From assembly GCA_037439865.1 (NCBI GenBank), contig JBBIVG010000003.1, positions 1 to 39,698 on the forward strand: a stretch of 39,698 nucleotides of DNA, in the 5' to 3' direction. Below are positions 11,401-13,983 of the stretch, piece after piece. A program made the position numbers and the translations under genes. Under the pieces are notes generated by a model. It made no database searches. It worked only from the letters and a program-made list of their open reading frames with translations, and was not told the DNA's origin. Source of the DNA: Nevskiaceae bacterium. Its GTDB lineage: Bacteria; Pseudomonadota; Gammaproteobacteria; Steroidobacterales; Steroidobacteraceae. Each line of letters starts with the position of its first letter. The first letter of the stretch is position 1.

Positions 11401-13983
11401 CAGGAAAAGAATTCGGTGCCTGGCACCTATTTTTTCCTTGTCGGCGAGGTGGCCGGCGAGCTTCAGTCGCTGGGCCTCGCCGCCCGACAGCGTCGGCACC
11501 GGCTGGCCCAGCCGAAGATAGTCGAGACCGACGGCGACGAGTGGCTCGAGGCACGCGAGCACGTCCGGGTCGTCCGCAAAGAAGTCCGCCGCCTCCGAGA
11601 CCGTCATGTCGAGCACGTCCGCGATGCTCTTCGCGGGCCCGGACCCGCGCGCCATCTTCACGTCGAGAGTCTCGGGCCGATAGCGCCGGCCGTCGCAGTC
11701 CGGACAACGCAGATAGACGTCCGAGAGGAACTGCATTTCGACGTGCTCGAAGCCGTTGCCGCTGCAGGTCGGACAGCGCCCGGTGCCCGAGTTGAAGCTG
11801 AACGTTCCGACGGTGTAGCCCCGCTCGATCGAGACGGCTTCAGCGGCGAAACGTTTGCGGATCGCGTCGAACGCGCCGACGTAGCTCGCCGGGTTCGAGC
11901 GCGTGGTGCGACCAATCGCCGTCTGGTCCACCATCACGACCTCGGCGACGTGCTCGGCGCCACGCAAGGTACGGTGTGTGCCGGGTGCCTCGGTGGGCTT
12001 GCCCTTGGCTCGCAGCAGCGCCGGGAACAGCACGTCCTGGACGAGCGTGGACTTGCCCGAGCCGGAGACGCCCGTGATGCACACCAGGCGTTGCAGCGGT
12101 ATCTCCACATCCAGGTTTTTGAGGTTGTGCTCCGTCGCACCCTCGACGAGCAGTCGCGGCTCGCCCGGCACCGACCGGCCTCGAGCGCCCGCGGCGACAG
12201 CCGCATCACGCTGTCCGGACAGATACTGTGCCGTGAGCGTATCCGCGCCCAGCGCCAGCTCGGATGGCGCCCCGTCGAACACGACGCGGCCGCCGTGCTC
12301 GCCGGGGCCCGGGCCGAGATCGATGATGCGGTCGGCCGACAGCATGATCTGCGGATCGTGCTCGACCACGAGCAGCGAGTTGCCGTTGTCCCGCAACCGC
12401 AGCATCACGTCGATCACGCGCCGCATGTCGCGCGGGTGCAGGCCGATCGAGGGCTCGTCGAGCACGAACAGCGTGTTTACGAGCGACGTGCCGAGTGCCG
12501 TCGTCAGGTTGATGCGCTGGACCTCGCCGCCGGACAGCGTGCGCGACTGCCGGTCGAGGGTCAGGTAGCCGAGGCCCACGCGCACGAGGAAATCGAGTCG
12601 CGAGCGGATCTCACCGAGCAGCAGGTCCGCGGCCTCGTCGAGCGGCGCAGGCAGCGACAGCTCCTGGAAGAAGTCCCGCGCCCGCTCGATGGGCAGCAGC
12701 ATCATGTCGTGGATGTTGAGCCCGGACCCCGCGGCCTCGCTTCCGCCGAGGCGCCACAGCAAAGCCTCGGGCTTGAGCCGCGCACCGCCGCAGTCGCCGC
12801 AGGGCGTGTAGCTGCGGTACTTCGACAGCAGCACCCGGATGTGCATCTTGTAGCTCTTGGTCTCGAGCCACGCGAAGAAACGCTTCGCGCCGTACCAGAC
12901 TTTCCGCTCCCACGGGCCCTCGCCGTCGATGACCCAGCGGCGCTGCTCCTCCGACAGCTCGCCCCACGGGGTGTCGAGCGGTACGCCCCGCTTCCTGGCG
13001 AAGCGCACGAGGTCGTCCTGGCACTCGCGGTAGGACTCGGACTGCCAGGGCTTCACCGCCCCACCGCGCAGCGTCTTCGTGGCGTCCGGCACGACCAGGT
13101 CGTAGTCCACGCCGATCACGCGCCCGAAGCCGCGGCAGGTCTCGCAGGCCCCGAGCGGCGAGTTGAACGAGAAGAAGCTCGGCGTCGGCTCGCGGTAGTG
13201 GATGTCGCAATCCGCGCAGTGCAGGTCGGACGAGTACCGGCGGACCGGGGACAGTCCCCAATTCGAGGCAGCGAATTGGGGACTGTCCCCTGATTCCGCC
13301 CGTACGGTGACCCGCCCGCGCCCGACCCGCATCGCGGCCTCGAGCGCCTCGAGGACGCGGCTCGAGCCCGCGCTGCCGAGCCGAAACCGGTCCTGGACGA
13401 CTTCCAGCACGCGGCCCTCCCGCGAGTGCATCCGCGTGTAACCCTGCTGCTCGAGCAGCCGCAGGACCTCCTGCTCCTCGAAATTCGCCGGCACGTTCAC
13501 CGGGAAAGTGACGAGTAGCCGCGCATCGCCCAGGGCGCCAGCCTGCGCCTCGAGGTCGCGCAGGATGCTCTCGGGCGAATCGCGGCGGACCGGCCGCCCG
13601 CAGCCGCGGCAATAGAGCCGTGCCGCCCGCGCGTAGAGGAGCTTCAGGTGGTCGTTCAGCTCCGTCATCGTCCCGACGGTCGAGCGGGACGTGCGCACCG
13701 GGTTGGTCTGGTCGATCGCGATCGCGGGCGGGATGCCCTCGATGCGGTCCACCTGGGGCTTGTCCATGCGGTCGAGGAACTGGCGGGCGTAGGGGGAGAA
13801 CGTCTCCACGTAGCGTCGCTGCCCCTCCGCATAGACGGTGTCGAAGACGAGCGAGGACTTTCCCGAGCCGGAAACCCCCGTCACGACGACGAGTTGCCGC
13901 AGGGGAATGTCGAGGTCCAGGGCGCGCAGGTTGTTCTGCCGCGCGCCACGGATCCGTATGGAATCGTGCGCCTGGTCGGTCAT
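8488..13983 (-). CDS. Tandem UvrA-UvrA fusion protein (excinuclease ABC subunit A paralog), 1,831 aa with four ABC nucleotide-binding modules
   Basis: There are four GVSGSGKS(S/T)L Walker A sites and four LSGGE(A/V)QR signature motifs, each followed by a DEP(S/T)xGLH Walker B region. Zinc-module cysteine pairs are present (CRGCG, CADCD, CETC, CGDC in unit 1; CPDC, CPSC, CTDC, CQSC in unit 2). A basic/Pro linker (ERQRARQAGRADVPKQQPTAPRVED) lies at about 11056-11150. Confidence 0.92.
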   Translation of the reverse strand: MTDQAHDSIRIRGARQNNLRALDLDIPLRQLVVVTGVSGSGKSSLVFDTVYAEGQRRYVETFSPYARQFLDRMDKPQVDRIEGIPPAIAIDQTNPVRTSRSTVGTMTELNDHLKLLYARAARLYCRGCGRPVRRDSPESILRDLEAQAGALGDARLLVTFPVNVPANFEEQEVLRLLEQQGYTRMHSREGRVLEVVQDRFRLGSAGSSRVLEALEAAMRVGRGRVTVRAESGDSPQFAASNWGLSPVRRYSSDLHCADCDIHYREPTPSFFSFNSPLGACETCRGFGRVIGVDYDLVVPDATKTLRGGAVKPWQSESYRECQDDLVRFARKRGVPLDTPWGELSEEQRRWVIDGEGPWERKVWYGAKRFFAWLETKSYKMHIRVLLSKYRSYTPCGDCGGARLKPEALLWRLGGSEAAGSGLNIHDMMLLPIERARDFFQELSLPAPLDEAADLLLGEIRSRLDFLVRVGLGYLTLDRQSRTLSGGEVQRINLTTALGTSLVNTLFVLDEPSIGLHPRDMRRVIDVMLRLRDNGNSLLVVEHDPQIMLSADRIIDLGPGPGEHGGRVVFDGAPSELALGADTLTAQYLSGQRDAAVAAGARGRSVPGEPRLLVEGATEHNLKNLDVEIPLQRLVCITGVSGSGKSTLVQDVLFPALLRAKGKPTEAPGTHRTLRGAEHVAEVVMVDQTAIGRTTRSNPASYVGAFDAIRKRFAAEAVSIERGYTVGTFSFNSGTGRCPTCSGNGFEHVEMQFLSDVYLRCPDCDGRRYRPETLDVKMARGSGPAKSIADVLDMTVSEAADFFADDPDVLACLEPLVAVGLDYLRLGQPVPTLSGGEAQRLKLAGHLADKEKIGARHRILFLFDEPTTGLHFEDVSKLLGAFRRLLDAGHSLVVIEHNIDVIRAADWVIDLGPEGGERGGTLVAEGTPAEIMQREDSHTGRALVEYEAERQRARQAGRADVPKQQPTAPRVEDAARDSIVVHKAREHNLRDVDVSIPRDGMTVVTGVSGSGKSTLAFDIVFAEGQRRYLESLNAYARQFVQPAGRPDVDAIYGIPPTVAIEQRTSRGGRKSTVGTLTEVHHFLRLLYVKLGTQHCPDCEVPIEPQSADAIVARLLRDARNRRIGLLAPLVVARKGYYTDLAKWAAGKGYGRLRVDGEYVSTQPWPRLDRFREHTIELPVGEVAVGPKSERELRETVQRALDLGKGVVHVLDRGRVRVFSTRRACPSCGRSFAEPDPRLFSYNSKHGWCTDCYGTGLAIKGFDEEQSGEEIWWNEWFEGEAAACQSCDGQRLNPEALAVRFRDRSIAQLSTLPVNDSLAFFGKLKLAGREREIARDLLAEIRSRLAFLQDVGLGYISLDRAAPTLSGGEAQRIRLAAQLGSNLQGVCYVLDEPTIGLHPRDNEILLDSLERLGSKGNTLLVVEHDEETIRRADHVIDLGPGAGARGGRVVGQGRIDDLVAAPESLTGRFLANPLRHPLGDRRRVRRGDPALAIEQAALHNLRKVNATVPLGRLTVVTGVSGSGKSTLARDILFANLRLRAGEKRRRGRAPDWIGCKAISGFDQVERVLEVDQTPIGRTPRSCPATYVGFWDDIRRLFAGTTESRVRGYSPSRFSFNTAGGRCDACEGQGVQTIEMSFLPNVKVLCDACGGRRFNAETLGVEYRGRSIGDVLAMSVDEAVEFFTAHLRIHGALRLLQDVGLGYLTLGQQSPTLSGGEAQRIKLVTELARLRSGQRTVYVLDEPTVGLHMADVEKLVHVLHRLVDAGNTVVVIEHNLDVIAEADWIVDLGPEGGSGGGRVVVQGSPEQVAKATAKSHTAKVLKPFLAERGNIGGG
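11403..11437. repeat. Monomer of the GGTGCC-N-GGCACC palindromic unit lying inside the UvrA-fusion coding sequence
   Basis: The sequence is GGAAAAGAATTCGGTGCCTGGCACCTATTTTTTCC. Positions 11410-11432 match 23071-23093 at 23/23 nt. The outer GGAAAA/TTTTCC and inner GGTGCC/GGCACC arms are inverted repeats. Confidence 0.75.
13247..13290. repeat. Perfect inverted repeat (19-bp arms, 6-nt spacer) built from two GGGGAC-N-GTCCCC cores, lying inside the UvrA-fusion coding sequence
   Basis: The sequence is GGGGACAGTCCCCAATTCG-AGGCAG-CGAATTGGGGACTGTCCCC, which I checked base by base. On the minus strand it translates in frame as GDSPQFAASNWGLSP. Confidence 0.85.

Follow-up and report, generated by a model that had tools for sequence, protein, structure and literature searches.

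Contig JBBIVG010000003.1 of a Nevskiaceae bacterium (assembly GCA_037439865.1) raises the question of how a unit of an intergenic palindrome came to stand, letter for letter, inside a gene for a UvrA-type ATPase, and what it does there. The window referred to throughout is the whole stretch of 39,698 nt that was analysed. The gene encodes a double UvrA-family protein with four nucleotide-binding domains (NBDs), and the block in question lies in NBD2, between the ABC signature and the Walker B motif. It was recognised as repeat-derived DNA acquired by the gene, and is probably a single copy of a small mobile hairpin repeat of the repetitive extragenic palindromic (REP) kind, tolerated in a permissive loop. 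The features concerned are the following.

8488-13983, minus strand: host gene, 1831-aa double (four-NBD) UvrA-family ATPase; block at residues about 849-860
11392-11409, minus strand: Walker B of NBD2 (LFLFDE)
11476-11490, minus strand: signature of NBD2 (LSGGE)
11403-11437, minus strand: genic singleton of the hairpin repeat with A/T-rich flanks, coding strand GGAAAAAATAGGTGCCAGGCACCGAATTCTTTTCC, encoding (K)EKIGARHRILF(L)
11410-11432, minus strand: 23-nt stretch equal to each arm of the intergenic dimer as well as to the main family form AAAATA-GGTGCCAGGCACC-GAATT
11415-11427, strand not assigned: 13-bp core palindrome GGTGCC-W-GGCACC
23032-23100, strand not assigned: head-to-head dimer of the same element, resembling a REPIN (REP doublet), between DUF6159-like and histidine-kinase genes

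The 23-mer AATTCGGTGCCTGGCACCTATTT was found exactly at 11410-11432 (+), 23071-23093 (+) and 23039-23061 (-), which confirms the 23/23 identity with an arm of the palindrome claimed in the original prediction; its positions, hairpin and translation were likewise borne out on recheck. The match had been called very unlikely by chance, and across 100 dinucleotide-preserving shuffles no match was obtained at ≤3 mismatches. The coding strand of the block reads GAC AAG GAA AAA ATA GGT GCC AGG CAC CGA ATT CTT TTC (D-K-E-K-I-G-A-R-H-R-I-L-F), preceded by LSGGEAQRLKLAGHLA and followed by LFDEPTTGLH in the second NBD, the 23-nt stretch itself encoding KIGARHRI between signature and Walker B. The local hairpin GGAAAA-GAATTC-GGTGCC-T-GGCACC-TATT-TTTTCC was present at 11403-11437, and RNA folding of this segment gave -17.5 kcal/mol (z = -3.0) for the coding strand and -20.1 kcal/mol (z = -4.0) for the other strand, with no shuffle folding equally well in either case.

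The palindrome at 23032-23100 consists of 34 + 34 nt with 97% complementarity, its perfect part being the 61-nt palindrome described before, and folded at -67.6 kcal/mol (z = -12). It had been called intergenic, and it does lie within a spacer of 120 nt, with a DUF6159-like gene (23088-23960) and a gene for a histidine kinase (21900-22967), both on the minus strand, on its two sides; the right arm (23088-23100), however, overlaps the upstream gene and makes up the last codons (R-G-K) and the TAG stop (23088-23090) of the DUF6159-like gene. A 770-codon open frame across the palindrome, considered in a test of open reading frames (ORFs) and of GC content at third codon positions (GC3), was rejected, being the antisense of real minus-strand genes according to the ORF listing. 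Among the collected relatives, the site orthologous to the dimer was without the element in L098 (GGGAAATCCTGA), and in L097 held only the outer flanks GGGAAATAG...CTACTTCCC, enclosing a different short core.

The element belongs to a dispersed family. Aligned copies gave the usual form GAAAATAGGTGCCAGGCACCGAATTTC / gaaaATAGGTGCCAGGCACCGAATTtc, with the core GGTGCC-W-GGCACC and A/T-rich flanks. The 18-nt core TAGGTGCCAGGCACCGAA was scanned against 185,579 genomes of bacteria and archaea (one per species) and yielded 93 loci, ~75 of them in ~10 metagenome-assembled genomes (MAGs) of Steroidobacteraceae or unclassified Gammaproteobacteria, many with multiple copies per contig; the exact 23-mer was found at 24 metagenome loci, at 14 of them as dimers. 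In the DNA collected by pattern, 183 copies of the 13-mer core were counted, 124 within 70 nt of another copy and 59 single. Paired copies were typically head-to-head with a spacer of 8-25 nt, and family copies lay mostly between genes, near gene ends. A short palindrome in many dispersed copies, with inverted doublets predominating, is the form of REPs and REPINs. It does not agree with a MITE, a miniature transposable element with inverted repeats, as the monomer measures 24-35 nt and the dimer 61-69 nt, and the flanks GACAAG / CTGTTC contain no direct repeat. The tetranucleotide before the stem GTGCC is ATAG, a 3/4 match to GTAG, and no CGTC was present. No Rfam family was matched at gathering threshold anywhere in the window, and a literature search for the palindrome sequence returned unrelated eukaryotic constructs only and no bacterial mention. 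A sigma-54 -24/-12 promoter, suggested by TGGCAC-N5-TTTC, was rejected since it would lack the -12 GC and the copies are found in either orientation. Comparison of the flanks around the UvrA, hutI and intergenic copies brought out no convincing shared target motif beyond A/T-rich GAAA/TTTC-like edges.

In-frame copies were seen in three host genes only among the pattern-collected relatives, namely hutI, the double UvrA (L041) and a membrane ORF. In four MAGs, the imidazolonepropionase gene hutI (TIGR01224, 448 bits) has this element in an identical frame (..DWLP-KIGARHRI-SVDAVD..), at the following positions.

L004, ~5618: element in hutI
L018, ~2755: element in hutI
L032, ~5662: element in hutI
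L076, ~1665: element in hutI

The K-I-G-A-R-H-R-I frame, which is the one kept by singleton coding copies in relatives, is hydrophilic and stop-free; one of the six frames contains TAG, and the others give Cys-containing or hydrophobic peptides. Two of the four hutI copies were directly followed by a GGGGAC-type element. The membrane ORF (L033, 4345-5859; 504 aa, exosortase-like by eye) holds an in-frame element pair (..EINSVPGTDLINSVPGTYFQ..) at an apparent domain junction.

A whole-protein search returned 119 orthologues of the host protein with 71-89% identity, 116 of which entered the loop-length analysis; the named close homologues were labelled Steroidobacteraceae or uncultured Gammaproteobacteria. 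Across orthologues, the LSGGE...DEPT stretch of NBD2 measured 30-70 residues and the variable linker columns 7-52 aa (median 22), making this the most length-variable part of NBD2. In 10 orthologues the linker had ≤9 residues (e.g. AESSAPRS), the same length as the loop in solved UvrA, and the DNA of such an empty site in P0016 comprised ordinary GC-rich codons (GCC GAA TCG TCG GCG CCG CGC TCG). At the same codon position, the element was found in P0002, P0006, P0007, P0009 (decayed), P0044 and L041, and other sequence in P0003. Distant orthologues do not conserve the block; by the original prediction, conservation there would have refuted it. The excess in linker length was also reproduced, with three residues over NBD4 of the same protein and four over Geobacillus stearothermophilus UvrA (2r6f).

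Codon usage of the block, proposed as a further check, proved foreign. GC3 was 0.46 vs 0.89 for the gene, tied for the second-lowest among its 13-codon windows, and the rare codons ATA, AGG, CTT, CGA and ATT each make up 3-7% of their synonymous class in the gene. The lowest 13-codon window (0.38) is located at 10474-10566 (aa ~1140-1170) and is non-palindromic, with no repeat match. Since the block is absent from most orthologues and foreign in composition, we conclude that it was acquired by the gene; with a dispersed family behind it, the data support the proposed origin as repeat-derived DNA, via insertion or conversion. As expected of an in-frame insertion, the frame is open, the host motifs are whole, and the element is absent from P0003, P0016 and most orthologues. 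Against an element core of 8 codons and an ancestral loop of 8 residues, the loop now has 12, a net gain of 4, so native codons were lost or replaced and the event was not a simple addition.

The host protein retains four complete Walker A / LSGGE / Walker B / EH(D/N) sets, with the catalytic motifs flanking the block intact, and matches PF17755 (UvrA_DNA-bind) and PF17760 (UvrA_inter). Its NBD2 aligned to solved UvrA 2r6f with E = 3e-153; at the loop, LAAELHRR----SNGRTLYILDEPT of 2r6f stands opposite LAGHLADKEKIGARHRILFLFDEPT of the host, the block falling on the 8-residue loop HRRSNGRT. NBD2 was modelled with AlphaFold2 using 39 orthologues (mean predicted local distance difference test, pLDDT, 80.9; predicted template modelling score, pTM, 0.77). 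In the model, the helix after the signature ran over model residues 230-244 and the Walker-B strand over 254-259, with coil in between (245-253), and the block (241-250) had a mean pLDDT of 71 vs 89 on either side. By this model, the block would occupy a solvent-exposed surface loop or coil that connects this helix with this strand. The turn before the Walker-B strand sits, in the general ABC fold, away from the ATP sandwich interface. Modelling had been proposed in order to see whether the element-encoded residues are exposed; a coil with a pLDDT dip at these residues was obtained. The earlier description of a functionally critical ABC-ATPase loop was not upheld, as the linker ranges from 7 to 52 aa in 116 orthologues, has no conserved sequence and is modelled as low-pLDDT coil. 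The element fits best as a tolerated passenger in a permissive loop, and its effect on the UvrA protein is most likely neutral; a side effect through the modest mRNA hairpin and the run of rare codons is possible.

The loop has received more than one kind of repeat. By a peptide-pattern count, which is not a DNA census, ~10 types of hairpin-derived peptides occur in the NBD2 linker of 64/116 orthologues, for example ENRGHSPIF/ENRRMSPIF, GTLTDFP/KSVSVPNF, GDILLF/KGECP, GDSPQ/GLSPV, GDTPNF, NGSEPF and ENVPF. Palindromes in the linker were confirmed at the DNA level in L098, L124 and L125; in L125 a dimer with the same core also lies between genes, 4.3 kb away. The linker of P0012 contains the palindrome GAAAACAGGGGACATTCTCCTATTTTC, that of P0044 has GGGGACATTCCCC beside a decayed GGTGCC element, and that of P0091 an inverted doublet AAATCGGGGACGCTCACCGATTTTCC...AAAATCGGTGAGCGTCCCCGGTTTTC (-66 kcal/mol), with a same-core intergenic dimer 4.3 kb upstream in the contig. 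In L041 (MAG CAVSZK01), the linker holds a doublet GGGGACATTCTCC...GGAGAATGTCCCC with the main-form monomer AAAATAGGTGCCAGGCACCGAATTAAT nested in its spacer, and the edge GAATTAAT of this genic copy is the variant particular to that genome. The GARHR element had a patchy distribution on a neighbour-joining tree of the orthologues (P0001/P0002, P0006/7/9, P0044/P0054), its carriers interleaved with relatives carrying the GDILL/GECP family or nothing. The intergenic dimer of L125 (3801-3880; GGGAAATAG-GGGACGCTCACC-TATTTCC) has the outer A/T-rich flanks of the GGTGCC family around a different core, which is also the core of the doublet in the UvrA NBD2 linker of that genome (gene 8155-13713). To judge by these sequences, there may be a superfamily built from modules, in which edges are shared and GC-rich cores can be exchanged.

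A second, unrelated element is found in the same gene.

13247-13290, minus strand: hairpin doublet GGGGACAGTCCCC...GGGGACTGTCCCC, in frame in the UvrA gene, aa 228-247

This 44-nt perfect palindrome (GGGGACAGTCCCCAATTCG...CGAATTGGGGACTGTCCCC, read in frame as SGDSPQFAASNWGLSPV) has a core that agrees with GGGGWSAS, the motif reported in repeats on either side of TIRYT genes; GGGGACAGTCCCC occurs a third time, as a single copy, at 3239-3251, and the pattern GGGGACNGTCCCC had 60 matches, both strands counted, in the related DNA collected. With 0-62 residues across orthologues, the site at aa 228-247 is a second length-variable repeat nest of the gene. Two other sites vary in length, the NBD4 linker (8780-8800 region of the window, aa ~1730) with 0-25 extra residues and a loop at aa 415-419 with 0-29; their content is basic or proline-rich and of low complexity, without recognisable hairpin peptides, and may represent fully decayed elements. 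In the linker between the two halves of the protein (aa ~950-985, window ~11030-11135), which varies by 0-14 residues, no hairpin-derived inserts were found in the 116 orthologues.

For the machinery behind such copies, RAYT/TIRYT proteins (RAYT, REP-associated tyrosine transposase) from Additional file 5 of PMC3733652 were compared by tblastn with ~1 Mb of collected DNA. About 18 of the 18-mer matches fell in unrelated taxa, where by a rough estimate ~17 were expected; dismissal of these as chance was itself rejected, as several adjoin Y1 (HUH) transposase genes. The loci are listed below.

L074, 5093-5901 (Rhodospirillaceae MAG, 51% GC): Y1 gene 5149-5799 bracketed by copies at 5093 and 5889
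L046, 4369-5419 (38% GC): Y1 ORF 4427-5407 bracketed by copies at 4369 and 5407
L044, 3130-4097 (35% GC): Y1 gene bracketed by copies at 3130/3152 and 4085, perfect inverted repeats GTTCTTTTGTTCGGTGCCTGGCAC
L015, 3938: truncated Y1 gene beside a hairpin copy
L034, 1549-3230 (high-GC relative): frameshifted Y1 gene 1 kb from a repeat pair

The flanked proteins matched PF01797 (Y1_Tnp) with 49-54 bits (cutoff 23), and their best NCBIfam model was REP_Tyr_transpos (REP-associated tyrosine transposase) with 67-80 bits (cutoff 80, reached or narrowly missed). A Bac_DnaA_C match (40.5 bits) was present in the L046 transposase, and no Pfam match was obtained in the C-termini of the L074 and L044 proteins; by its combination of Y1_Tnp and Bac_DnaA_C, the L046 protein is predicted to be a TnpA-REP of subclass 2.1.2 type. 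A Y1 gene bracketed by non-GTAG inverted repeats, as in L074, L046 and L044, is the arrangement of TIRYTs and TIRtrons. Hence, in terms of sequence, the hairpin appears to be the end structure of a Y1 transposon type found across phyla, which in this gammaproteobacterial lineage has multiplied in the form of a non-autonomous repeat. Since the same hairpin brackets Y1 genes in other bacteria, and a single-strand mechanism is established for the IS200/IS605 and TnpA-REP enzymes (PMC6006769, PMC8266576), we infer mobilisation in trans.

The course of events that we propose is as follows. The element would be a single copy of a small hairpin repeat, non-autonomous and of the REP/REPIN kind, lying in frame in the NBD2 coil of the double UvrA, and its copies would be made in trans by a Y1 (HUH) transposase of TnpA-REP/TIRYT type acting on single-stranded hairpins. 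The genic copy would survive because the loop tolerates almost anything and because the K-I-G-A-R-H-R-I frame is stop-free and hydrophilic. The loop itself may have served as a nest over a long time, with members of several families inserting there, at times one into another, then decaying and being lost by deletion, and the window copy would have replaced the ancestral 8-residue loop and not merely extended it. As a whole, this explanation is considered probable.

The age of the window copy was judged against third positions of conserved L/V/S/P/T/A/G/R codons, used as a proxy for four-fold sites. Between the window and the four closest element-bearing orthologues, identity at these positions was 0.55-0.57, which at 89% GC3 is near saturation. 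The orthologous copies have drifted from the main form, to TCCGGTGCCAGGCACCGGA in P0007 and P0006 and to ACCGGTGCCAGGCACCGGT in P0002, with CC...GG edges that occurred nowhere else in the collected DNA; the core has three mismatches in P0009 and one in P0044, and the window copy equals the main form at 23/23 positions. Given this match despite near-saturated neutral sites, the copy would be either young or refreshed by conversion. Either it is a recent arrival, possibly replacing an older copy, or conversion has renewed it.

Several observations weigh against the proposed course. The element is without the GTAG (or CGTC) tag that defines classical REPs. No Y1 transposase gene was found in the 39.7-kb window and no intact one in ~0.8 Mb of related high-GC DNA; transposase and repeat swarm were together in one genome only in L034, where the gene is frameshifted, and intact flanked genes were found only in other phyla, so that mobilisation in the window's lineage is argued by analogy from those. 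The closest orthologue (89% identity) has a diverged copy, which would also fit a single old insertion with uneven decay, and no clean pair of filled and empty sites was found among near-identical strains. Although neutral sites are saturated, four lineages have one and the same 13-nt core, and orthologous copies have longer perfect stems (TCCGG...CCGGA, ACCGG...CCGGT; -20 to -24 kcal/mol); an invariant core and longer stems could reflect selection on the hairpin rather than neutrality. Finally, the linker between the protein halves appears equally permissive yet is free of hairpin inserts, so that more than tolerance is needed to account for the repeated use of the NBD2 loop. A landing-pad effect, nested insertion into an element already there, would be the simplest addition.

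Three other explanations were weighed against this. An old genic copy in the ancestor of the clade could have been overwritten later by ectopic conversion from intergenic copies of the same genome. Occupation of the same codon position in P0002, P0006, P0007, P0009, P0044 and L041, which span two sister clades, is in line with this, as are the saturated neutral sites between these genomes and the agreement of each genic copy with its own genome, the L041 copy having that genome's GAATTAAT flavour and the window copy matching the window dimer. On the other hand, a tract of 23-27 nt is very short for homologous conversion, and repeated insertion into a nest explains the pattern equally. Within up to 25 kb around five orthologues, element-bearing or lacking, no intergenic family copies were found. 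We consider this explanation possible but rather unlikely, and in any case a variant of mobilisation into a nest and not an alternative to it.

The hairpin could also be retained for a function, as an RNA structure or rare-codon pause that adjusts expression or folding of the four-NBD protein, as a protein-binding site, or through altered UvrA activity that shifts the mutation rate, a possibility on which Di Nocera et al. had speculated for REP-tagged repair genes (PMC3733652). Besides the invariant core and the longer stems in orthologues, the outermost stem pair is compensatory (T-A in P0007 vs A-T in P0002), intragenic REPs are reported to be enriched in repair genes (PMC3733652), and the linker between the halves is left unused. 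This is countered by the bare 8-residue loop in 10 orthologues and the unrelated elements or plain low-complexity sequence in many, by the decayed cores of P0009 and P0044, by the lack of an Rfam family match and by the occurrence of this element, read in an identical frame, in the unrelated enzyme hutI. As bare loops, unrelated elements and decayed cores are all common, selection on the hairpin is rated low and appears improbable. Least credible is a coincidental match, or a repeat stitched into the gene by a metagenome assembler. The contig is of metagenome type and has ~40% GC in its last 580 nt, so some assembly caution is fair; but the shuffles gave no match, the reading frame is intact across 1831 codons, and the element recurs at this codon position in independent assemblies made from other samples, by which chance and artefact are effectively refuted. 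At the contig end (39100-39698), GC falls abruptly from ~0.68 to ~0.40, and this segment could be foreign or mobile DNA, or an assembly chimera.

The element was also compared with known systems. Di Nocera, De Gregorio and Rocco (2013, BMC Genomics 14:522; PMC3733652) described REPs inside ORFs, frequent in genes of replication and repair including uvrA, and gave a definition of TIRYT genes with the repeats that belong to them. In Additional file 3 of that study, Thioalkalivibrio Tgr7_1444 (1889 aa, 'excinuclease ABC, A subunit') has REP dimers at aa 865-887 and 1761-1783, and the same file gives REPs at aa 638-644 and 1601-1623 of Oter_2709 (1995 aa) and at aa 224-239 and 440-462 of Oter_3168 (999 aa) of O. 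terrae. The element in the window resembles these in being a short palindrome in frame, single or dimeric, with two insertions per gene, and Tgr7_1444 is also a double UvrA; unlike them, it bears ATAG in place of the GTAG tag. Repeat ends often donate TAG stops to neighbouring ORFs (PMC3733652), as the dimer end does at 23088-23090. By length scaling, the sites in Tgr7_1444 would be the signature-to-Walker-B linkers of NBD2 and NBD4 (host aa 846-858 and ~1730); a protein search for Tgr7_1444 with a chimeric query returned short UvrA fragments without the REP peptide, and the two REP peptides alone gave no match. In PMC3733652 the insertions were not placed in the protein fold, and turnover of several families at one loop across a bacterial family was not described. 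The kind of event is thus already known, in-frame REPs in uvrA having been listed in 2013, and is not surprising to specialists.

With REP/REPIN-RAYT systems, the element shares a palindrome of 20-40 nt in high copy number, head-to-head doublets, a mostly extragenic location near gene 3' ends, and the flanking of a Y1 HUH gene. It differs from them by the missing GTAG, a tetranucleotide required in the REP systems studied (PMC8266576, PMC3733652), by flanked transposases at or just under the NCBIfam RAYT cutoff, and by the separation of the swarm from an intact transposase. As in TIRYTs/TIRtrons (subclass 2.1, PMC6006769), Y1 genes lie within non-GTAG inverted repeats, and some repeats are amplified as dimers or clusters. 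GGGGWSAS, present in most terminal inverted repeats of this group, is absent from the GGTGCC element, though the palindrome at 13247-13290 fits it. Quentin et al. (2018) reported no REP-like sequences near TnpA-REP subclass 2.1 genes (PMC6006769), in contrast to the self-complementary hairpin that flanks Y1 genes here. Rickettsia palindromic elements (RPE) are comparable as selfish palindromes inserted in frame at the protein surface of genes that stay functional (PMC3733652, PMC3184786); however, RPE-1 measures 105-146 bp, is unrelated in sequence and belongs to reduced intracellular genomes, and no membership is claimed. MITEs such as Correia/NEMIS, Nezha and RUP are likewise non-autonomous, hairpin-forming and sometimes fused to ORFs (PMC3184786), but are 70-400 bp long with terminal inverted repeats and target-site duplications, against a monomer of ~24-35 nt here.

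What seems to be new is the GGTGCC-W-GGCACC family, its association with TIRYT-type Y1 transposases, and one ABC-ATPase loop serving as a repeat nest with turnover. A previously undescribed hairpin is thereby tied to TIRYT-type Y1 transposases, a group without reported flanking hairpins. For annotation, the finding is a warning that AT-rich, rare-codon patches in GC-rich genes can be repeat-derived and are not necessarily errors, and for engineering, the NBD2 loop represents a natural permissive site in UvrA-type ATPases that is useful for tags and insertions. It also provides a concrete system for target choice by REP-type elements. Going further, the NBD2 loop and the loop at aa 228-247 might be a specific, heritable target for Y1-mobilised hairpins, family-wide and perhaps across phyla if the Thioalkalivibrio sites coincide; this we regard as a long shot. 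If true, it would mean that a signal of sequence or structure in the gene attracts single-strand transposition, or that a repair ATPase which recognises hairpins and the hairpin repeats are functionally tied (e.g. by repeat-driven modulation of repair). More than 100 orthologues record the same ABC-ATPase loop being filled, overwritten and emptied by ~10 repeat families. Selfish hairpin DNA has here turned into protein sequence, and the case, from a free-living, GC-rich bacterium, is well documented.

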